Under the pieces are notes generated by a model. The model was given only the letters and a program-made list of their open reading frames with translations. It searched no databases and was not told the origin of the DNA. A stretch of DNA of 64,000 nt from a virus (taxonomy: Duplodnaviria > Caudoviricetes), in IMG/VR virus record IMGVR_UViG_3300031867_000003, positions 128,001 through 192,000 of that record. One strand, written 5' to 3'. This document shows positions 3,001 through 43,313 of the stretch, piece by piece (position 1 is the stretch's first letter; the number at the start of each line of letters is the position of its first letter). The translations under genes and the position numbers were made by a program.

Positions 3001-6000
3001 GTATTGCCAACAAAATTAAAGTTTTGATTGTTCATCGCTGTCTGGGCAATTCTTTGTTCTTTTTGCGTTAAACTCTGTATGTCATCCCAAGATATCTTGC
3101 TTTTGCCTTGTTTATAGACATTTTTACCATTAGCATCTTGAGTTACCTCGCCTCCAAGTCTTTTGAATATGGCAGCTCGAGTGTCAGTAGCGTTCCAGTG
3201 GTAATCACCATTTTCATCCTCATATTTGTATTCAAGACCAACAAGAATTGTTTGCTTTATTTTATAATTTTCAGTTCCTTCGCCACCTGGGAAAATCGTA
3301 TTTAACACACCATTAATCTGATCTCTCATTTCTTTATTGGTGGCGTCATCAAATTCAAAATTAAAAATTTTAGATAAAGCTTCTTTTGATACGTCTCCGT
3401 TGCTAACAGCTTGTTCTATCGGCGCAAGTATTCTATTTTTAATATCATCATCAAAACTTTCGCTATTAGAACCTAACTGTTCATATAATGTATCATAATC
3501 GATATTATATAACTAAGATAAAATACTATCCGTTAAATCTTCGCCGAGATGTAAAAAGTTAGGATCTGTCTTTAAAGTCGAAATTAAATTAGGAACAAAT
3601 CCAGTCGCCCAATTTGCCGACTTCTAAACATTGGCAGACTTTATAGTATCTTGTGCTCTTTCTATATAACCATTAAGAATGTTCTGGTACCCGTCCATAG
3701 AACTAGATAACTAGTTTAAATCGTCCTATGTTAACTTAAATGTTATTTTTTCACCCTAATCTCCGTGGCTATAATAACCATAATCTACCCCAAGACTGCT
3801 CAGTACATTTTCTAGCGCGGATCTGGCCCCGGAACTTGTAGGAGCATCCCACACTTTTGACCCAGTAGAATTTATCTCTGCAATCTTATTCTGTATTTCT
3901 TGTACCTATGATATCTGTTTTTCCGCACCGGCAATTTCGTCGTCATAGTTTTTGTTTCCTTCAACGATTCCTTTAACTATACCAGGCATTTGTTTTTCAA
4001 TTTCATTTGCTTTTATTTTATTCTGTGCTTCAATTAATTCATTTAATTTATCTGTTGCCTATTGAGCATTTTCCCCTAAGTCAACCAAAGACTATCCGCT
4101 ATCTGTTACTCCTGTTTTTAAGGATGGAAATGTATCCGCGAGCTATTGATTGATTGCCAAAAACTCCTCATAATCTTCTGTTGAGAGTGAGAGATTTTTA
4201 ATTTGATTTCCTCTCATATAAACACCGGAACGAAGTTCATTATAACGTTTTCTAGCGTTTTCGCCAACTTCATTAACAGCGGTCATTTCTTCTCTTGCTT
4301 TTCTAGCTTCTCCCTATGCCGCTAATCCTTTATTTATTTTGTTTTCTCTATAATGTGCTAGATAATTAATCCCTTCGATCCCTTTACCAATCGCAGCCGT
4401 AATAGCCATAGAAATTGCACCTGTTGCAAGACCGGAGATAGCAGTTAAACCAACGTCTTTAATGAATGAGGTAGCTATACCCTTAAATGTTGCTTTCTCA
4501 TTAAGTGCCTTTTTAAAATCATCAACAAGCATACCTTTGCCGCCACGTTCTGCAATGCCGGCGATTATGTCTTGCGCTTCATCCTTAGCATTTGATAAAC
4601 CGGTCTGCCTAACATCTCTTACTCCATCCCAGCCAAAAAGCTATCCGACGGTAGTAGCATTTCTATTTCCAGCTATTCTTTTATTAAGCCATTCAATTGC
4701 ATCTTCCTTTGGTTGCGTGTTAAATAATGCGTTCTTAAGACTTTTAAAAAATCCCCCATTAGTAGAATCAAATCTAGTTTTCATATCCTTAAAGATATGT
4801 CCAAATTCCCAATCCCCCATACCGTTTTTACGGAATAATCCGTTTCCGGTAAACTGAAGAAATCCGCCGATTCCGGCTCCAAGAATTCCACTAAGGCCGC
4901 CGAATGCGTCTACTAACTACGTAACTACTTCAACGGCAGAAGTGCCGAGTTCAATGATATCTTTAAGCCATTCACTGTCAATTGTTACTGTTGCCAGTTG
5001 TTGTAAACTATTTTGAAGCTGTGCCATTTTTCCTTCTACAGAATCAAGATATGTGTTAAGCTCGTTTTGTGCCGATCCTTGTGAGTTCATTAAAGAGTCT
5101 TGATAGACATCTTTTAATAGCTGTGGATTTGATAATAGGCTACTTGCTGCTGCTGCACGCGTTTTTCCTCAATTATGTTAAACATGGTTCACAACACCAT
5201 GTGATTCGTAATAAACGAATCTCTTACACTTTCATGCAAGTTCTGACCATTTCTTCACCCTCAGCATCATCTGTTAGGGGCATACCTTTTCGGCGTACCA
5301 TAAGTTTGTACCCTACGATTATTCATAATCTGGTCGATGAACGTTCGCCAATATATATATCCAAAATATACATACAGGCGCTTCGATGCAAGAACAGCCA
5401 ATCTTTATGTTATAAAACCATCATAATATATTTTCATTATTATTGTGGTATAAAGCTCTAAGGCATTACCTGCAATTAGATATGTTCTTTATATATATTT
5501 CTATATATTGTGGCAAGCCGTTTGCCACCGTTTCAAGTAATAGCGACTATCTATTAGTGCCCAGTTTCTTATCTTCCTCACCAATTTCCTTAAATACCTC
5601 AGCGATACCGAGCATACGTTCGTATGTTGTTTTGTAAGTACCGTCGTCATTCAGTATATCAAAACCTTTATATCCGTTTGATTGCACCTTTGTTGCGTCA
5701 AGAATCGTTTGTCGCAGTTTCGATTGTGTAGTAATTAAACCATCGATTTCTTCGCCGGCTTCTTGCATGTCTTCTACGGAAGTGCCGCTCAATCTCAGTG
5801 AGATTGTCTTAAGGGATTGGCCAACCGTGAGAGGATCTTGAAGGACGGCATTTGCAGCAGTAGTAAGAGCCACAGCTTCGTCAAATGAATCCGATCATGT
5901 TAAAGATAGTTCGCAACGCTATCTTAATTTATTGATAAACAATTATCAATCTTTATCTATCAATAAATTCTTTACCTTTCGGCAAAGTCCCGACTATTTC

Positions 6001-9000
6001 TTCACCCTCACCATTACGTGGAGGGGCATACCTTTTCCAATTCCATTTGCGATTGAATTGTACAATTAGTCTGTGAACGTTTATCTTCAATTAAAAAGAT
6101 ACTTCGCTGCGCGATCTACCAATTCTTATTTTTTAAGACTATCATAAACAATTGCTTGCTTATTGTAGTAATAAGACTCTAAGGTTTTACCCGCAATTAG
6201 ATATGTTCTTATAATATATTTCTATATTATCGGGCAATTGTTTTTACCCGTTACTTGTAATGTACCAGCAGATTTCTGAAGTGACTCAGCTAACTCTGAC
6301 GTACTGATTGCGTAGTTATTGCCTACGTAGTTTAACTTATCGATGATTTCCGATTTATCAAGATCTTTATACGCTTGGCTCATTGCAGTTAATGATTCAG
6401 TTGCAGCATTAATGTCTTGGAATTCCGACACATTAAGAAGTACAGTTGACAATTCCGCACTTTTTTGTGCCTACTCAAACGACTCGCCCAGTCTTAACCA
6501 ATCCGCAGTACTTTCTTGAATTTGTTTAGACGTTGTCCCGACGCGATCGGCAGCCTCAAAGCTTCCGTGTTGTGCAAAATCTTTAAGAACACTAAGTGGC
6601 TCGTCAGACACTTTTCGCATTTCCGTGAGGGCAGTGTCAAGTTCTCTGACGATATTTACTCCTTGCTTGGCAATATTGATTACTTCATACAAATCCGCGT
6701 ATGTAAGTAAATATCTCGCCATTCCCTTGAACGAACCTTTAAGAGTCTCACCAAATGATTTGCCGACATCTCCGGCTTCCGTAGCCTAGGTTTTTATCCG
6801 CTCAAATGCTGCGGCGATTTCATCAAGATTACCGGCGGACGCACCATTTATTGCGTCTTGAAGGTTTTGAATTTGTGGGAAGTATTCAGTGGCAGCGGAA
6901 TTTTTATACATCCACTCTGACATACGGCGATTGAGAGTAGCAGCATCTTTTTCGTCGGCGGGAGAGTAATACCCTCCACTAGATCGTTGAACTACGTCAT
7001 TCAATCTGCCTCTAAAAGATAATACCTAAGCCTAAATCTAGTCACGTCTATCGGGGGTGGCTTTTTCATATTCCCCAGATATTTTAACCAAATTTTCAAA
7101 CTCTTCGTTTAAATCATGCAGAACGTTTACTCCATCTTCATTCCAGTTTCCATTGCCTAATTTTTGAAGAACTTCACCCATTTCCTCAAGGCTGTCGGTA
7201 AATGCAGACGTCTGCGCCTCATTCATAGTGTCATCAAATTGTTGTCTTAATTGTTTTAACGCATCCGATGCCTCACCTTGTGCGGTGACGAAAAGTCCAG
7301 TTTTATTTATCGCATTTTCATAAAAAGTTCCATATCTGTTTAAAAACGCCTATTCAGAATAATCCAACATCTATCCGTTTCTCTGCTTTTCATTAATTTG
7401 CGCATAACGCTCTGCATACTTAATAAGTGTTTGATATCCACGCTCAACATTTTCAAATTCATAATTCTCATTATCATTAAATGCGGACATCCCTGATTTT
7501 AAAACGTCCACATCTGCCATTTTTTGTCTATAAGTATCAAGAGCCGCATTAGGAACAGTCCCATCGTTTCTCTAATTCAATTTGTCAAGCGATTCATATG
7601 CTTTTTCTGCTTCCTCGCGATACTTTTCCATTGTTTTTATCGCCTGTTGTAGCTAATTGGCGCTTATCTCTCCAAGATTAAACATATCCTATGCATTAGA
7701 GGCTCGCTTTGCGGCATCATAGTATTGCTATATTTTACCGGCCTATTCACCGACATATTTAGATTCAGTAGCCTCCCATTCCTTTGCCAATCTGGCATCA
7801 TGTGAGGCAATAGCTCTATCTAAATCATCTCTGGATTTATAAGAACCATCTTTCGAAGTTACCCATTTGTCTAAAGCAGAGTCTGTCTATTCCTATGTAA
7901 TTTTCGATGCTTCCTTAAATTCATATATTTTTTCTATCGCTTCGTCCGCAGCTTCTGCTGTATCTTCCATCATTCTGACAATAGAACTTTTTACATTGTC
8001 CGGAATCACTTGCCCTTTTGCCTCATCTGTCAACATTTTATTATACGTATCTCTAGCTTCAATTGCCCTTTTTATTATATTAATTTGCTCTTCATATTCA
8101 TCCTTATTCTTTTTATTCACTGCAGCTGTTTTTTTATCCTAGGATTGTGCGGAGCCATTTTGAGCAGCTTCCCACGCTTTTATCCCTTCTTGATATTGCT
8201 CATCTGTAATATCATCTTTTATAGCCTCTAATTCACGCTTCGCGTCAGCAGCTTCTTGATATGCTTTTGTTAATCTAGAAACGGCCTCAGCCCATTCTTG
8301 TGTTTGTTTAATTTCAGGATTAGACTCGGCTTTTGCCTCTAGCTCATTCATTTTAGTTCTAGCGTTAAATAATTCTTTAAATTTATCAGTTTGTTCTTTA
8401 TAAAAATCACTAATCGTTTTATTTCGTTTTTTATTATCATCAGCTTGTGCCTTACCCTATGCCTCATAACGCTTACGCCCCATATTATATTCAGTGTTAC
8501 GCGCTTTTTGATATTGCTATTCTTCCATAGCGATTGCCATAGCATCTGATTTTTGACCTTCATATTCAGCATTTACATCCTTAAAACGTTGTTGAATAGA
8601 TCTTAATTTATTATTAAATTCCTCTAGGTCTTTGGATTTAAGATTGGAGCCGATATTTTTTTCAAGATCACTCAATTCTTTTTCTAAATCTGAGGTATCT
8701 ACATTAGACTTCTACATCTTACGCATGGTATTATGTATATCAGTAGTTAATTTATCTTTGGCAGCTGTTATGCTATATGGATTAAACTGAGTGTTTGCCT
8801 TTTGATTTTTTATAGCCTACTGCGCCGTTATTTTATATTCATTAATCGCAGCCCCTAGCTGTTCCTTTACTGTTTTCGGCATTTCTTGCCCAGCGTATTT
8901 ATCAAAGAAATCTTCGAATATTTTATTATACAAATTAGTAAGCTTTGTATCGTCCTCACTTGAAAAAGTTACTCCCGCATTATCTATATATTTCGCTTTT

Positions 9001-12000: not shown

Positions 12001-13619
12001 TCAGCCTAATTTAACCATTCTGTTTCTATATTTGCCTCAATTGCTGCGTCCGCTACATCGTCTTTAACATGCACATTAAACTATTGTTCTTTTCTTGATG
12101 TGGCTCTCGAAAAATCCCACATTTCTCTATTAAGTTGCAATAATGATTTCTGATTATTTCTAGCTTTTTGGTTAGTACCTTCTCCAAATCTACCTATAGC
12201 ATCAGATACCTAATTAACCACAGATAACAAAGACTAAAACTAACTAATTAACGGTTCTATTCCAGCGTCTGTATCTATTTGACCAAATGCAGAACTAATA
12301 TTTGTTATTTCCGTATTTAAATTTTCTAGTGTATTAATCAACTATTGAATATTTTCCGTATTCCAAGACGTAGAATCACCACTTGTAGCATGAATTTCTG
12401 AAGACATTTTTTCTTTTTTTTTATTAATATTTTCTATATGTTCCTCGGTATCATTTAAAGCCTATTCCGTTTCATCTATATTTGGCATTTTTATTTTTGA
12501 AAAATCAAAATCATTAATAGCCTATTTAATATCATTAAGTGCATTTTTAAGTTCATTTAATGCGTTTGTTGCGGAAGTTATTTGTCCCTCATCAATTTTA
12601 AATGTTAGTCCATTACCATCTTCTCCGAGAGCATCTAGGGACTACGAGACTTTATCTATAATATTTTGAAATTTCTAAAACGTTCCGTCATCTTGAAATG
12701 CTTTCTTAATTTTGCCAATAGAATCGGCTACGCCGGATTCGGTCTCATCTTCAACTCTATCAGCCATCTGTTTGGATGCCTCTAACTCCCTCTCAAGTTC
12801 TGCTCGCTGCTATTTTAATGACTTAACCTAGGACTTATTTATTTCATCTGGATTTCTTCCAAGATTCTATAAATTTTTATTTCTAACATCAACCAGTCTA
12901 GCCTATATGTCTTTATAGTTTTCAAACACGCCGGAATCTTTAATTATTCTGTTATCGGGGTTTAGAGCAGTTCTTAATTTTTTAGTAATATCAAATATTA
13001 TTTGAGAAAAATCTTTATCGTCAAACCCTATTAACTAACTCAAGTCTCCGCCTTGACCCAAATATTTAAATAAATTATCAATATAACCACGCAAATCACT
13101 TGCATTTTCCTTAGAAAATAGCCCGTCCAATTGAACATTTGATGTAGCAAGCTATTGTATCTTTCTATATCCTTGACTATTAGAATCAAGTAAATCTCTT
13201 TGTATTTTCCTAAAATTATTTTTTGCCTAGTTAGCATTTTTAATTTGTTGATTTATGTTATCAATATCAAAACCGATTACTTCCTCTGGTCTAACAGTTG
13301 TTTTTCCGGCTATCTGATTAACGGTTCTTCCAACATTTTCTAAATTGCTCTATACTTCTCGAAGAGAATTGCTAAGTTCGTCCATCCCTGCAACATTTAA
13401 ACCAAATAAATCTTCGCCGTTCTATCCTTTATACATCTTTGTTACATTTTTAATCGCGGATTCAATGTCCTTAATTGAGTCTAATATTTTTGATGTATCT
13501 ATATCTGCATTAAATTTAATTGGTTTTTTAGCTCTTCTTTCCAATTCGTCTATTTTTTTAGTGCCACTATCATCAACTTCAACTTTCAACGGCACAATCA
13601 CGGTTTCAGTTTCTTTCAT
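1..13619 (-). CDS. Tape measure protein, >4300 aa in window, runs off left edge; exons 13619-6246, 5891-5524, 5169-<1; many in-frame TAG (Gln)
   Basis: The ORF fragments starting at 13619, 10730, 10382, 9458, 8351, 8120, 7226, 7004, 6722, 6452, 5873, 4532, 3329, 1352, 1019 and 761 share one frame and end in TAG where inspected. TP901-type TMP core (VRELDTALTEMRKVSDE, ESTADWLRLG, KLNYVGNNYAIST). GGGGTGA RBS before ATG 13619. Confidence 0.92.
5170..5523 (-). ncRNA. Group I intron in tape measure gene (354 nt, no ORF)
   Basis: Core motifs: AATTGCAGGTAA (P), GTTCATCGACCA (R), AAGAAATGGTCAG (S); P7 GACCA/TGGTC; terminal G. Removal joins LLETVA|GKTRAAAASS in frame. Confidence 0.85.
5892..6245 (-). 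ncRNA. Group I intron in tape measure gene (354 nt, no ORF)
   Basis: The 5' exon ends ACGGGT and pairs with IGS GCCCG (U.G at splice site). P AATTGCGGGTAA, R GTTCACAGACTAA, S AAGAAATAGTCGG; terminal G. Splicing gives AGTLQVTG|DSFDEAVALTTAAN. Confidence 0.92.
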
Positions 13620-13633
13620 TATTACTCACCCCC

Positions 13634-14071
13634 TTATAAAATTCCATTTATATATTCAACAATTAAATCACTAATAGGCGTAGATGTTGGTACATTTGCA
13701 AATGACCATCCACCAGCACCATTGGGTCTCGGTCCACCATGAACACCATAATTAACGGCTTTATCAAACGCATGTCCAGAATCACCTGGGTAAGTTGTAC
13801 CCCATGGCGCCTCCCAAGAATTTACTCCCACCGTCCCAGAAGTAAAAGTATATACCAAATCACATCCTTCTATCCCGTGCCATCTTTCTTCCGGCTCTAC
13901 TTCTGCAAAACTATCAAAACCAAAAACACGATCATAACTACCTGGACCACCAGAACCGTACCATTCTGCCACGGCACCGCCAATAGCAGCAGGGATTTCT
14001 TCTTTTATTTTGTTTACCTATTCTTCGAGCGCAAGTTTTATTATCTAATCCGGTATAATATTTTTATTCAT
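13634..14071 (-). CDS. Hypothetical tail-region protein (145 aa, 2 TAG)
   Basis: ATG 14071 with AGGTG RBS reads through two TAGs into ORF 13634..13972; ends TAA. Confidence 0.7.
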
Positions 14072-14121
14072 AAATTGCACACCTACCTTAACGGTATATA
14101 ATTATACCGCTCATGTTATTA

Positions 14122-14637
14122 TCAATTAAACGTGTTATCTAATATTGCATTCAATTTATCTAAATCTATTTTTTCAAAAATAGGATATAGTGTAGCTCCG
14201 ATTAATTCCCCAAATCTTTCAACTTGTTTATTTATATAACTATGCGGCTCATATTCATTTGTTATCATGTCATTACACTTCATATTAAGAATAATTTTGA
14301 ACTCATTTAAATCTTTTTCATCAATCATAGACACAATATCATCAAGTGCCATAGATGCATCTAATTTATTATATTCATTAAGCCCATCCTTAAAATTTAT
14401 ATCAATATCCGTATACATATCTACAATACTTAAAAATGTAAACATATGTTTTGCAGTAGAATTAACTTTAAAATTCCTATTCTCATCATAATAAGAATTA
14501 TTAATAATTATCTGAGATCGAACATCTTTTTCCTCAAGAGGGATATAAGATTTTACAATATGCTCTTTAACAAATACAATGCGCTTATCCGTTTCTTTAC
14601 AATTATCATATAATTCCATAAATTCATCAAATTTCAT
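14122..14637 (-). CDS. Hypothetical protein, possible tail assembly chaperone (171 aa)
   Basis: AAGGAG RBS before ATG 14637; function inferred only from position upstream of the TMP. Confidence 0.6.
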   Translation of the reverse strand: MKFDEFMELYDNCKETDKRIVFVKEHIVKSYIPLEEKDVRSQIIINNSYYDENRNFKVNSTAKHMFTFLSIVDMYTDIDINFKDGLNEYNKLDASMALDDIVSMIDEKDLNEFKIILNMKCNDMITNEYEPHSYINKQVERFGELIGATLYPIFEKIDLDKLNAILDNTFN

Positions 14638-23879: not shown

Positions 23880-25098
23880 TTATTCGTCTTCCTCGTCATC
23901 TTCAACAACATAGATGCTATAAAGTCTCTTATCAGCGTCGCAGTAAGAAACCTGAAGCTGTCCATTAAAGTCGATAGTTTGGTTGTCGGAACTCAGTGAC
24001 ACTTCGCTTTCCGGCGATACCTGGAAGGACGGAATGTCGATATATGCTGCACGAAGTGTATCTGCGGAGCAAGGATCGACACAAAGAACCTTGAGAATAA
24101 GACGGATAGTTCCCGGGAACTTATCAGCTTTATTAATCATCTCAACAGCACCAGCTGTTGCGGCTGTGCCGTCAAGTTCACGATCATAACGAATCATGTA
24201 CTGAGTATAATCGTTGCTAAGCGGAAGAGTAAGAACTCCCGTCCCATCATCATAAGTAAACGTAGAAGCTGTAGCACTACCACCAGTCTGGAATGCAGTA
24301 CCAAGAGTACCGTTGTTCTCCATGCCATATACCTTCGGAGTGCCGGTTACATATTTAAGAGTAACTGTCGGACCATTAGATGCCTTAGCAATTGTGATAC
24401 CAGGTGCGGTAATTTTATGATTTGCAGTAGCCTCAATTTTACCGGAACCCGCTTCAGAACCAAGAATATTAAGATTAATGAAAGCGTTAGTTGCGGTAAA
24501 CTCACCAGTTTTTGCTCTCCAGAAACGTTTCACGAGGTTGCCGTCTTTATCGGTAACATCATTAGATTCTGCGGTAATATTAAGAGTAGCTTCCTAAAGC
24601 TAGGTGAGTGTATAGAGAACGTTGCCGTCAAAGTCTTCAGCAGTTGCGACCTGGATACGGTCAATAATCAAATCCTAGTTTTCTTAAAAAGAAAAATGTT
24701 CACATGGGGTCGCTAGTCCCATGTAGTTCTCAAATGAACTTCTTATTGTTTCCAATAAGTACAGACTATATCTTATTCTACAGCATTACCTGTTTAGACC
24801 TAACCATTTCGAGAGTCAATAGCTTACTCCCTACTTTCTCTTATGAGAAATAGTCGTTGAACCTTACCTTACGGTCTTGGCTGCTGATTGCCCATTGTTA
24901 ACGGTACTTAGGATTTAACCATATACCATATAGTAATTTTTTTCTACTTTCGTAGCTCTCACGTATATATCTATTAGATATTGCGTTGTAGCTTCACTAT
25001 CTTTAGGGGTTCCCAGCAATTAGATTAGTTATTATAATTATGACATATACATATTTCTATATATGCTGACTAGATTATTAATCAAGCTTGAATGCCAT
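23880..25098 (-). CDS. Major tail (tube) protein, 270 aa; exon 1 25098-25081, exon 2 24674-23880; 2 TAG
   Basis: AAAGGAG RBS. The spliced product reads MAFKLD|DLIIDRIQVATAEDFDGNVLYTLT(Q)L(Q)EATLNITAES and continues into ORF 23880..24533. Function is inferred from position and composition. Confidence 0.8.
24675..25080 (-). ncRNA. Group I intron in major tail gene (406 nt)
   Basis: P1 CTTGAT/GTCAG with U.G; P AATTGCTGGGAA, Q GGCAATCAGCAGC, R GTTCAACGACTA, S AAGATATAGTCT; terminal G; P10 AATC/GATT. Confidence 0.93.
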
Positions 25099-26545: not shown

Positions 26546-29282
26546 TTACAACGCAATGATTTCAATTGGCAACGAAGCAATTATATCTTCGCCGTCAACT
26601 TTATATGTTACAGTAAGTATTTTGCCGATATACGAATCGTCTCCCAAGAACTTAACCTTAACATGATTATCTATTACAGATAACGTCAGCAATTCTTGTG
26701 GAACAGAATTCCCGTCTATAGAAAATTCCCAAGTACCGGGAAGTGTATCTATCGACGTACCGTCTTCGTCGGCAAATACCACGGTGAATGTTTTGGCAGA
26801 GCCGCCTATACGAATCTGCTGTTTACCTGAGCATGTAATTGTAGTAGTGGTAGTGGGAGTTGGGATAATATCATCTACCGGAACAGCCGGAGTAGGTTCT
26901 ACTTCACTAGCTTTCCAATCCGCCCACCAAGCAACTACATTGCCATCAACATCATAATCAGCTTTAAGTGTATGTTGATTAGCAAGATCTTGCGCACAAG
27001 TAAAAATCGCAATTCCTTTAGAATTTGAACGATTTATTTTACTAATCTAAAATACGCGAGGTTCTGTTAATACGTTGGCATCTATCACCAAGTAAGTGTT
27101 ATAATATAAATGTTCCGTATCACGATTTAACGGAAGACAGAACTAGGTCTAGTCTTCTGGTTGCTAAAATTTATACATATACGTTACTTTATCAAGTCGT
27201 TAATTTGATAAAGAATTATTTAATTCATTTAAAAAAGCCAAATACTTAGAATGTTTTCTTTCTAAATATCTATTCGCATCATAGTATAACCAATCCATGA
27301 TTTTTATTACATTCTTTTTGCTTAATGTTTGAAGAACGGATGTAATATCATTTTCCTCTGGATGAGCGAGTTGAAGACTTAAATTTACACCTAATTTATT
27401 TTGAAATATTTTATTAACACTATTACAAAAATCAAATGTAGATATTATCTTAAATCCACACCTTAAAAGCCCATTATCTTGAAACGTATAAAAACTTCCG
27501 TCCCCGTCAAAATAACCCCTTATAAAATGTGAATGTAAAAAATCTGGAATGTCTGGGAACGTCAACATCAAACTTTTGTTTTGAACCATTCCTTGCTCTA
27601 CTAAAGAATTTGATAAATGTTTACTTGATAGTTCTAAGCATATCTATGGTTTAACATTATCAGCTTTTATTAATCTATCTCCAATATACGAATCTCTTTT
27701 AATAATTTGTCGCAGTGGTCTATTAGATCCTATATCTTCACTAAATTTTTCTATTATTTCACGATCATCAATTTGTAAGTCTAAATGTATCGCATTCCTA
27801 GGAACATTATTACAACCATCCGCATACAATAATCCCAAGTAATATGCCTTATCTTGGGTATCTATTATATCAAAATACTCTTCATTTAATGAATATTTTC
27901 TACGACCAGGATTCTTTATTCCTAGATTAATAAATAATTCAGATATAAATCTCTAGCTAACATTATTTTCTTCAGATAATTTTTTAATAGATTTCCCAGA
28001 CTTATATTCATCGATATGGTTATCAATATTCTCCAAAAACAATTTTCTATTGTATTTTGCATCTTTATTATACATATAATTAATCCTCCTTCAAAAGATA
28101 TAATGTATGCTATAATAAAAACAGTAATTTTTATGTTGAAGGCATAAAAAAACGGTTTGCAACCCGCTGTCCTGTTTTTATTCAAAATGATTAAATAATT
28201 TTTCTTATACTTTCATATAAGATCGGACTATATCTTTAACCGCAATTGCGGTTACTTCCCACTGGACTTACTTGAGCCACTTAGTCTCTGAACTTTACCC
28301 TCATCAAGTCTTAGCTGCTGATTATCCAATATAATATATTTTTTGACTATCACGCTTAGATGTATCTCATTATTACGTTGTAGTTATACTATCTCTAAGG
28401 AAGTTCCAGCAATTCAAGAAGTTTTCATCGTATTATTACTAATACGTGCGACTATTTCTAATCGAGCCATAATCCACTCATTATGTTATCATAAGGCTTT
28501 TTATCCTTATCTCTTACTGTCGCCAGTAAGATCAGCATATGTTTTCTCCATATCATTAACTTGACTTAGGAGTCGGACACTCGTGGGAATATTATATTTA
28601 TTCAATTCCTATGCGTTACAATACTTCGCAGCCTTTCGCTATCTGCGAAGTTATCTCGGCGTTGTCTACGAGAGAGTTCCACCGATTTTGCCCGATTTTC
28701 ACTCATAAGTTTCCTTATAAGGCAACAATTTTTATTGTAAGAATTTTGGCTCCTGCTGACCCCAGGGAACTCATAATATTTCCCATCTTTAATCCAGCGG
28801 AACACTTCGTCACAACGAAGTACTTCCCAAGTCGGAAACATATTTTCATCCCGGTCAGCTGTAGCAACCACTAACCATCTACGGTATATGTCATCTTCTC
28901 CCTTTAGCCAAACATAAAGACCAACTGGATATCTAGCTCTATACCGCTTACCAAACACTTCTTCGTAATAATCAACACCGCACTCATGACCTGGTCTAAA
29001 CTAAATATGCATAGTCTATTCATCTTTTTGAAATGTCTTAGAACTATGTGCAATAAATTTCACATCTATAGGGGTTGGATTTGTATCCTCTTCCGGGTTA
29101 AATCCTTCAAGACGAAGTCTATTCTGCGGCGCGGTATGGTAGTAATCGAAGAAATATCCAACCTAATACTAAACATCCTATGCAAACGTAGCATCCATGA
29201 TTACATCACTTTGCTACTTCCTCGCCCTCCCCGGTACACTAATATTATTGTGCATTGCCTAAAAATCTCTGTAGGTAATCAT
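26546..29282 (-). CDS. Putative head-tail joining protein, 398 aa; exons 29282-28734, 28478-28461, 27175-26546; many TAG
   Basis: The spliced junctions read GVSRSQNSYN|SGLWLD|YKF(Q)QPED(Q)T(Q)FCLPLNRDTE; all three exon lengths are multiples of 3; AGGTGA RBS. Confidence 0.82.
27200..28075 (-). CDS. Intron-encoded double-motif LAGLIDADG homing endonuclease (291 aa, TAG read-through)
   Basis: AYYLGLLYADG and HFIRGYFDGDGS motifs in one frame; GAAGGAGG RBS. Confidence 0.9.
28114..28182 (-). promoter_or_regulatory. Three-way-junction RNA motif, copy 2
   Basis: P1 AATAAAAACAG/CTGTTTTTATT; P2 GCGG-GTTGCAAA-CCGT; P3 TTTTTATG-CCTTCAA-CATAAAAA. The loop is complementary to TTGAAGG at the endonuclease RBS. 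Confidence 0.7.
28479..28733 (-). ncRNA. Group I intron (255 nt, no ORF)
   Basis: P1 CAAT/GTTG with U.G; AAAATCGGTGGAA (P), CGCCGAG (Q), variant P7 GCATA/TATGC; terminal G. Confidence 0.85.
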
Positions 29283-36344: not shown

Positions 36345-36617
36345 TCACCTACAAACATCATTAATTATGTCGGCAGTTTTCGTAAGTTCTTCACGGGTCT
36401 TTTCACTAAACCCAGCGTCGGCAACTAATGCCTACGCAAGATATAGACAAAAGTTTAGAAGAAATTCATCCTCTACATCAGTAGTAGATTCATCACCATT
36501 AAATATCTTATCTGATATTTGATTATATTTTTCTATACACTCGGTTGTATTCGGGTAAAAATTTTTCATTATCCTTTTTATCTCCTTATTTATTCTTTTT
36601 TTAATTATCATAATCAC
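36345..36617 (-). CDS. Hypothetical protein (~90 aa, 1 TAG)
   Basis: ORF 36432..36617 reads through TAG to TGA 36345; start uncertain. Confidence 0.45.
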
Positions 36618-36681
36618 AGAATAGGAGAGGGGTTAGGACACCTCTCCGTATAAAGTTTGTAACTCCTTATATTATTCTGTG
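36615..36681 (-). promoter_or_regulatory. Three-way-junction RNA motif, copy 3 (directly 3' of the suppressor tRNA)
   Basis: P1 CACAGAATA/TATTCTGTG; P2 TATAAGG-AGTTACAAA-CTTTATA; P3 GGAGAGG-TGTCCTAACC-CCTCTCC. Confidence 0.7.
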
Positions 36682-36685
36682 TGAG

Positions 36686-37002
36686 CGGCGGAGTTGGGAC
36701 TTGCACCCAAACCGACGGGCTCAGAACCCTGTAGTTTTCTTACCACATTATGTTTCCATAACCGAATATTATTCGTTGTAGTCTGGGACATCTCATTACC
36801 ATATTTAATAATATATTAAACTTAGGTAGAAGCTCTATGTCCTCCACACATTTATAAGATATAATAATCTTAATTTAGCTCGGGATTGCCATATACAAAA
36901 CGTACTTAGGTGTTCCCCGAATTAGGCTTCTTTTCAATTGTATTTTTCAACACAATGCTCCAAAACATCAGAGACTACCTGTGCTGCTTACACCACTCCG
37001 CT
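36686..37002 (-). tRNA. Amber suppressor tRNA (anticodon CUA) split by a group I intron; exons 37002-36970 and 36738-36686 (86 nt mature, CCA not encoded)
   Basis: Spliced form: acceptor AGCGGAG/CTCCGCC, D arm GTGT-AAGCA-GCAC, anticodon arm GTAGT-CTCT|AAA-ACTAC, extra arm GGGTT-CTG-AGCCC, T arm TTGGG-TGCAAGT-CCCAA, G73. Confidence 0.85.
36739..36969 (-). ncRNA. Group I intron within the tRNA anticodon (231 nt)
   Basis: P1 exon CTCT / IGS GGAG with U.G at the splice site; P10 GTTTT/AAAAC; P AATTCGGGGAA, Q GGCAATCCCGAG, P7 GGACAT/ATGTCC; terminal G. Confidence 0.88.
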
Positions 37003-43117: not shown

Positions 43118-43163
43118 AAGCAGTTATTCCGTCAGAATGTAGCCAGTATCATCACTGGTAAAT

Positions 43164-43232
43164 AGAATATGTACGACTCGAACGTCTCCCCTTCGTCCCA
43201 GGCGAAGTGTGCTACCATTACACCACATACTC
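43164..43232 (-). tRNA. Divergent tRNA or pseudo-tRNA, anticodon TGG (Pro-like)
   Basis: Acceptor GAGTATG/CATATTC, D arm GTGT-AATGGTA-GCAC, anticodon arm CTTCG-CCTGGGA-CGAAG, T loop TTCGAGT; short T stem and C33. Confidence 0.6.
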
Positions 43233-43313
43233 TAAAATAATAAATTTCACCACGGGAATCGAACCCGAAGCAGAAGAGTAGTAGTTACTCTCCCGCGTAC
43301 CAACCTAAACAAA

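Follow-up and report, generated by a model that had tools for sequence, protein, structure and literature searches.

An intron-split tRNA(CUA) gene of a TAG-recoded phage with a predicted spare glutamine anticodon arm

The closest described systems to the locus treated here are the code-15 phages, in which TAG in late genes is read as glutamine (Gln) with a phage-encoded CUA transfer RNA (tRNA) in a standard-code host whose own synthetase is presumed to charge that tRNA (Yutin et al., 2021, PMC7886860; Borges et al., preprint, 10.1101/2021.08.26.457843; Peters et al., 2022, PMC9523058). Many recoded phages are reported to have no detectable suppressor. Further, phages that reassign stop codons rely on host synthetases that normally read the anticodon, and the discussion of the Borges et al. 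preprint raises the question of how a suppressor stays a good substrate for them. The present analysis concerns a 64,000-nucleotide stretch of phage DNA (the window; positions 128,001 to 192,000 of IMG/VR virus record IMGVR_UViG_3300031867_000003, Caudoviricetes), part of a 202,175-bp virus record that is complete according to CheckV. Positions 36686-36738 on the minus strand of this window are the 3' exon of a split tRNA(CUA) gene. The phage resembles the code-15 phages in carrying a CUA tRNA, in reading late-gene TAG as Gln and in its presumed dependence on the synthetase of a standard-code host; in contrast, the accessible parts of those papers describe no long arm with a Gln anticodon, no open 1:72 pair and no suppressor intron. 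It is reasonably probable that the gene encodes a working amber suppressor that is charged by host GlnRS and inserts Gln at late-gene TAG codons, and that its odd features, including a spare anticodon arm, are Gln identity marks. The original prediction, which described a non-canonical tRNA body, is confirmed as an observation, while its interpretation is only partly supported and was wrong on its main point, a conflict of identity with Gln.

Joining 37002-36970 to 36738-36686 yields an 86-nt RNA that ARAGORN calls as tRNA(CUA) at default settings, and with its intron option the program recovers it from the unspliced sequence as c[36685,37002], intron (34,231). The 5' exon (36970-37002, minus strand, as are all parts of the gene) was delimited by ARAGORN on the joined and unjoined sequence and is identical at 33/33 positions to an intronless allele in another phage contig (L009:5675-5707). 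It comprises the acceptor strand AGCGGAG (37002-36996), U8 and G9, the D stem GUGU (36993-36990), the D loop AAGCA (36989-36985), the second D-stem strand GCAC (36984-36981), A26 with an extra G (36980-36979), the anticodon-stem strand GUAGU (36978-36974) and the loop bases C32, U33, C34 and U35 (36973-36970). In the ARAGORN structure, the 3' exon opens (36731-36738) with A36, A37 and A38 (36738-36736) and the stem strand ACUAC (36735-36731), and the joined anticodon loop reads CUCUAAA with the anticodon CUA. After the variable region come the T arm (36694-36710), with stem UUGGG/CCCAA and a loop UGCAAGU (36705-36699) in which G replaces the usual U55, and a segment (36686-36693) holding the acceptor strand CUCCGCC (36693-36687) and the discriminator G73 (36686), for an acceptor/T geometry of 7/5. 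The departures from a canonical body that had been listed are all present: A1 (37002) is mismatched with C72 (36687), the 5-nt D loop lacks GG, two bases (AG) instead of one precede the anticodon stem, the T loop is aberrant, G73 is in place, and G73 is followed by CUC, so that CCA is not encoded. The extra G is an insertion in the Rfam alignment of the intronless twin, and neither elbow element, G18-G19 in the D loop or T54-psi55-C56 in the T loop, has a match. Nonetheless recognizable as a tRNA, the twin scores 36.0 bits against RF00005 (gathering score 29).

The predicted length of about 20 nt for the region between the anticodon and T arms (36730-36711) was borne out, while the predicted 5-bp stem with a 3-nt loop was not; the relatives support a 3-bp stem with a 7-nt loop. 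On this comparison the region consists of A (36730), the stem GGG/CCC (36729-36727 and 36719-36717), the loop UUCUGAG (36726-36720), in which the Gln triplet CUG occupies 36724-36722, and a 6-nt linker GUCGGU (36716-36711). In all eight relatives of the window-type family (alignment A3) the loop conforms to UUYUGAG, and all three stem pairs covary, with stems such as GGG/CCC, GCC/GGC, CCA/UGG and AUC/GAU. The window gene departs from its intronless twin at a single base, reading CUG in this loop where the twin has UUG; the two triplets are both Gln anticodons. A second, larger family of CUA suppressors, to which that of the closest complete relative (G007) belongs, shows the same design with covarying stems and the loop CUCUGAA or CUUUGAA. 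Overall, the spare loops are CUCUGAA (19), CUUUGAA (5), UUUUGAG (2), the UUCUGAG of the window and others, to be compared with the host tRNA-Gln anticodon loops CUCUGAC, CUUUGAC and UUUUGAU. Of 36 distinct type II tRNA(CUA) genes, 30 have the motif, whereas the remaining type II tRNAs of these loci, about 97 in number, all lack it. Judged by these alignments, the arm is a copy of the tRNA-Gln anticodon loop set in the variable-arm position. Neither a spare anticodon arm nor a suppressor split by an intron was found described in the literature searched, and no published account was found of a suppressor that pairs a stop-reading arm with a spare hairpin bearing a cognate anticodon. Aptamer-tagged tRNAs offer an engineered likeness, as a hairpin was added to an amber-suppressor tRNA that stayed translationally active; in the accessible part of that report, however, the hairpin is no anticodon mimic for identity (Mukai, 2020, PMC7590224).

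The arms are supported by compensatory change. Alignment A3 keeps all five helices, with 96.4% of cells paired and 17 of 24 pairs changed on both sides, a figure reached in none of 500 shuffles; in a wider alignment of 30 suppressor tRNAs (A2), 19 of 21 pairs have changed on both sides. The spare arm in A2 was counted by a loop-anchored script because MAFFT misaligns it. The original prediction had named a lack of covariation as the sign of a pseudogene, and the opposite was found. In addition, the exons are 98.8% identical (85/86) between the window phage and contig L009, although at the DNA level their terminase genes are only 70% identical. Because of this disparity and the compensatory changes among relatives, the tRNA(CUA) is taken, on comparative grounds, to be under selection and not a pseudogene. 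Close copies are rare: blastn against the phage collection gave no match, and exact-word scans of viral and metagenome contigs with the 5' and 3' halves of the window's gene recovered only one other phage, in three samples. In the window and in contigs L009 and L395 a D loop AAGCA is accompanied by a T loop UGCAAGU, while in six relatives whose D loop contains GG the T loop is UUCRAAU or UUCGACU; the identical T arm is also present in tRNA-Met, tRNA-Arg, tRNA-Gly and tRNA-Lys genes of other phage contigs. The two departures are coupled and probably represent a compensated elbow contact, in which the G-C of the D loop would pair with G55-C56.

The meaning of TAG was read from homologous proteins. 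The late genes on the minus strand use TAG as a sense codon, with 39 and 57 in-frame TAGs in two open frames, or about 2% of codons. When relatives were aligned at the DNA level by tblastn under the standard code, Gln stood opposite the terminase TAGs at position 51 in 143 of 153 relatives, at position 103 in 156 of 160 and at position 555 in 110 of about 160. Across all TAG-aligned cells (about 2190), Gln accounted for 843 and serine (Ser) for 79, and no TAG position was mainly Ser, leucine, tyrosine or tryptophan (Trp), except for one tyrosine-rich site in p574. The alignment with true CAA and CAG codons of standard-code relatives indicates that TAG is Gln in this phage, which contradicts both the proposed conflict with Gln and the suggestion that another residue is inserted. 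A first tally, made on database proteins, was partly circular because some of these (P0005, P0012) had been translated with TAG as Gln, and it was replaced by the DNA-level count. Tallies of TAG residues taken from protein databases are in general partly circular, and checks at the DNA level are required.

The acceptor end follows a rule that fits this assignment. Among the 30 tRNAs of A2, the 1:72 position is U-A (9), A.C (8), U.U (6), A-U (5), G.U (1) or U.G (1) and never G-C or C-G, G73 is present in 29 and G10 in all 30; in the window-type family, 1:72 is unpaired in seven of eight. The window tRNA also has G2-C71 and G10, and the tRNA-Gln of the host clade has U1-A72 and G73. In its decoding anticodon U35 is retained, position 36 is A and not G, and the complete Y-U-CUG-A-R loop is found on the spare arm. 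GlnRS opens the first base pair of its substrate, and su+3 tRNA-Tyr mutants changed at 1, 72 and 73 are mischarged with Gln; su+3 tRNA-Tyr is itself a type II tRNA, to which a weakened first pair and G73 direct GlnRS. In E. coli, Gln identity resides in the acceptor stem, the discriminator, the 10-25 pair, U35 and G36 (PMC9976931). A1.C72 with G73, which had been read as conflicting with Gln, would therefore speak for it, because a weak 1:72 pair with G73 is a rule of the family and matches what GlnRS requires in E. coli. The E. coli amber suppressors supE and su+7 tRNA-Trp(CUA) (the latter from Yaniv et al., 1974, as cited in PMC2965240) are a precedent, as CUA leads GlnRS to a foreign tRNA body. 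However, those are laboratory mutants with partial mischarging, whereas the marks of the present tRNA persist throughout a natural family and are accompanied by a spare Gln hairpin.

A change of amino acid is accompanied by a change of the spare arm in one Trp-type phage examined. The tRNA(CUA) of the 146-kb phage G009 (L311:7800-7892) has G1.U72, G73 and the spare loop GUCCAAA, the Trp anticodon loop with CCA. In a YonG-like protein of G009 (L312:463-3407), in-frame TAGs align with Trp in 114 of 120 homologs at three sites and with phenylalanine, Trp or tyrosine at two more, which indicates that G009 reads TAG as Trp. An E. coli tRNA-Trp whose CCA anticodon is replaced by CUA takes on Gln identity (PMC2965240), and a CUA tRNA that inserts Trp would thus need another Trp mark. 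These data support a scheme in which the amino acid goes with the triplet of the spare arm and the codon with the first arm. A tRNA-like gene in a 12-kb viral contig (L366), missed by default ARAGORN, carries a UCA arm and a CCA arm that seem to branch from a common GGG/CCC stem; the open frames of this contig are longer with TGA as a sense codon, and it looks TGA-recoded. A 15-mer scan for the Trp-type arm returned mostly chance matches.

The probable host supplies the enzyme that such a tRNA would need. The tRNA(CUA) gene lies downstream of the terminase and portal genes, and the neighbouring genes of relatives encode SPbeta-type YonG/YonJ/YonD domains. Related terminases are found mostly in Lachnospiraceae and other Clostridia, including the isolates Robinsoniella peoriensis, Eubacterium plexicaudatum and Konateibacter massiliensis, and it is from these that a Firmicute host, likely of the Lachnospiraceae, is considered probable. 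A crAss-like phage of Bacteroidetes was dropped as a candidate, given the SPbeta-type Yon domains nearby and the mainly Lachnospiraceae and Clostridia relatives. A Firmicute host had been assumed from the outset, along with a requirement for the GluRS/GatCAB route; the host probably stands and the requirement does not, as GlnRS (TIGR00440, 707-735 bits) is encoded in all five host-clade genomes that carry related phage sequence. The gatB gene is present in three of the five and was not found in the other two. In the complete 202-kb phage genome no GlnRS/GluRS-like gene, SerRS or release factor was found, and the dedicated phage synthetase that had been proposed is not supported.

Taken together, these observations allow a scheme for how the suppressor may acquire its amino acid. 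The intron would be spliced out and CCA added, after which the host's own GlnRS most likely loads Gln. The recognized marks would be the open A1.C72 pair, G73, G2-C71, G10 and the C34 and U35 of the decoding anticodon, with the G36 that is absent from CUA supplied by the spare hairpin loop UUCUGAG. The CUA arm would then set the codon and the spare arm the amino acid. A more general form of this scheme, in which the two tasks of an anticodon fall to physically distinct arms, one (CUA or UCA) reading the stop and the spare one displaying the loop cognate to GlnRS or TrpRS, is about evenly poised between true and false. It is possible that the tRNA flips between two stackings of its five-arm junction or that the spare arm docks in the anticodon-binding domain. 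If so, the amino acid of a stop codon could be changed by a swap of the spare loop, as appears to have happened in nature, where CUG or UUG accompanies Gln and CCA accompanies Trp. A spare cognate hairpin with an open first pair and G73 would explain in a simple and general way how a suppressor stays a good substrate, and would provide a natural template for suppressor tRNAs of chosen identity.

Several points weigh against this scheme. The variable arm of a type II tRNA normally faces away from class I synthetases, and reading of the spare arm would need a swap of arms or an unusual docking; the spare stem of the window tRNA has only 3 bp, and contact of GlnRS with it is deduced from sequence comparison. 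The minimum-free-energy fold of the intronless twin forms neither the T arm nor the spare arm but pairs the spare region with the T arm, and for this reason the structure was judged by covariation. Conservation of the loop is partly imposed by the search patterns, since the scan that retrieved most window-type relatives required a UUYUGAG-type loop; one scan for suppressors of the second family used the anticodon arm alone as its pattern and was therefore free of bias toward the spare arm. The acceptor rule also has exceptions, as one window-type relative (L450:7645-7733/L462) has C1-G72 and U73 despite a UUCUGAG spare loop, and the suppressor of G007 has A73. Position 3:70 of the window tRNA is C3-G70, in place of the G3-C70 of E. 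coli and host tRNA-Gln. In addition, the reading of G009 takes into account one suppressor tRNA, the tRNA(CUA) at L311. The host, finally, was deduced from terminases of relatives in Lachnospiraceae genomes, many of which are binned metagenome assemblies.

The best-surviving alternative, though itself rather unlikely, is that GlnRS charges the tRNA with Gln while the spare arm goes unread, identity residing in the open 1:72 pair, G73 and C34-U35, and the arm being a structural element or a relic of duplication. The usual placement of a variable arm away from class I enzymes is in keeping with it, as is the spare loop of the second family, CUCUGAA, which is one base from the anticodon loop CUCUAAA and could reflect a duplication. 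Moreover, E. coli amber suppressors such as tRNA-Trp(CUA) are readily glutaminylated (PMC2965240), a point remarked on in the accessible part of the Borges et al. preprint, and phage tRNA(CUA) species are known substrates of E. coli GlnRS (bioRxiv 2025.10.30.685624). However, a relic would not hold a 7-nt loop constant over a covarying stem in dozens of phages, would not restrict its variation to the two Gln triplets CUG and UUG or switch to CCA in the one tested phage that reads TAG as Trp; the motif is also absent from about 97 other type II tRNAs.

An indirect route, in which a non-discriminating GluRS loads glutamate, GatCAB amidates it and the weak 1:72 pair serves GatCAB, is improbable. 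GatCAB and GluRS2 do use the U1-A72 of tRNA-Gln and reject G1-C72 (PMC9976931), and the gatB genes of the host clade would permit such a route. Nevertheless, every one of the five genomes encodes GlnRS while two yielded no gatB, B. subtilis GluRS relies mainly on a modified U34 (PMC9976931) whereas the decoding anticodon here has C34, and G73 matches the tRNA-Gln of hosts that possess GlnRS.

Far less probable still is the proposal that the tRNA is a substrate of SerRS, or a natural orthogonal tRNA in need of a phage synthetase, with TAG read as Ser or another residue. It draws on the long variable arm and G73 (or U73), which are SerRS elements, on allo-tRNAs that have them and can insert Ser (PMC5389517), and on the existence of Ser-like tRNA(CUA) genes in phage contigs L264, L265 and L277, whose phages may read TAG as Ser. 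The allo-tRNAs, found in Clostridia and phages, are indeed alike in their long variable arm, G73 and unusual anticodons, some of them stop-reading; however, they have an 8/4 or 9/3 acceptor/T geometry and carry Ser (or alanine), whereas the window tRNA has a 7/5 geometry, a loop copied from an anticodon and TAG read as Gln (Mukai et al., 2017, PMC5389517). The Ser-like suppressors likewise differ, having G1-C72, G73, the D arm of tRNA-Ser and arm loops of 4-6 nt, in contrast to the mismatched 1:72, 7-nt loop and 6-nt 3' linker seen here. The original prediction had taken the long arm and G73 for Ser identity, but the arm bears a Gln anticodon loop, Ser is greatly outnumbered by Gln opposite TAG, and the complete phage genome offers neither a SerRS nor a GlnRS/GluRS-like gene. 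Scarcely credible, lastly, is a decaying pseudogene or a non-decoding, tRNA-shaped decoy, which the default ARAGORN and Rfam misses and the lack of G18G19, U55 and an encoded CCA might suggest, as the default miss is due to the intron, the exons are conserved well beyond the terminase, every stem has compensatory changes, and this is the only CUA tRNA that ARAGORN finds in a complete genome in whose late genes about 2% of codons are TAG.

The intron itself has known counterparts. Group I introns interrupt the anticodon loop of cyanobacterial tRNA-Leu(UAA) and other tRNAs, and the window gene resembles such bacterial genes in carrying a predicted intron of self-splicing type in the loop, whose bases would take part in P1 and P10. 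It differs from them in that the gene is a phage stop-codon suppressor, the insertion falls between positions 35 and 36, and the Rfam match is below the gathering score. The 231-nt intron (36739-36969, minus strand), placed between U35 and A36 by RF00028, ARAGORN and the intronless allele, matches RF00028 at 36974-36783 with 29.7 bits (E 1.5e-5) in a permissive Rfam scan, under the gathering score of 50. As read from the sequence, a guide GUUUU-GGAG pairs with AAAAC of the 3' exon (P10) and CUCU of the 5' exon (P1), a U.G lies at the splice site, and the intron ends in G. In contig L009, and also in L198 and L202, the exons are contiguous without an insert, 85 of 86 positions are identical and the junction is exactly the same; the predicted splice junction is thus confirmed by an intronless twin in another phage. 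The further processing that had been suggested is upheld to this extent: maturation of the tRNA(CUA) requires the predicted splicing as well as CCA addition. Second-family suppressors at L215:7561-7827 and L239:5539-5804 are split by inserts of 175-176 nt at the same CUCU|AAAA site (introns called by ARAGORN, without an Rfam run), and the 3' ends of inserts in L229 and L235 are similar to that of the intron in the window. Movement of the intron among suppressor genes with a common anticodon loop seems likely.

The unspliced gene is unseen by default ARAGORN and an Rfam gathering-score scan of the window, which return only a tRNA-Pro (43162-43234) and three group I introns elsewhere. It is overlooked because of the intron, and for the same reason it is a case of the undetected suppressors mentioned for recoded phages; an intron in the anticodon loop would thus explain why surveys miss suppressors in many of them. 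It is the only CUA tRNA that ARAGORN detects in the complete phage genome, with or without the intron option. The intron option was of little use at related loci, where it mostly fused neighbouring tRNAs. ARAGORN labels the joined RNA tRNA-Pyl, because of the CUA anticodon alone. In a tRNA-Pyl the variable loop is 3 nt long, the anticodon stem has 6 bp and a single base separates the acceptor stem from the D stem; here the variable region is 20 nt long, the anticodon stem has 5 bp and two bases (U8 and G9) lie between those stems, and the label was ruled out on these structural features.

Other RNA features of the phage may be noted. The three additional group I introns lie on the minus strand in late genes (5970-6255, 24742-25093 and 28204-28481) and score 61-81 bits, enough to pass the Rfam gathering score. 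An ordinary tRNA-Gln(UUG) (G000:C1:15746-15822) with A1-U72, G73 and a 9-nt variable loop is encoded by the phage outside the window, as are three long tRNA-like genes (G000:C1:12087-12168, 12891-12981 and 14050-14141) that score 31-36 bits with Rfam and are missed by default ARAGORN. One of these begins AGCGGUG, as the suppressor does, and has an irregular anticodon loop of 6 or 8 nt, one resembles tRNA-Ser(GGA) with U1.U72 and G73, and one could not be folded by eye. Directly 3' of G73 in the suppressor gene, a three-way junction (36615-36685, minus strand) is formed by a 9-bp long-range helix, CACAGAAUA/UAUUCUGUG, around two hairpins, UAUAAG...CUUUAUA and GGAGAGG...CCUCUCC. It matched no Rfam family up to an E value of 10. 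The junction could serve in processing of the 3' end, the part played by theta ribozymes beside phage tRNAs (PMC10879173).

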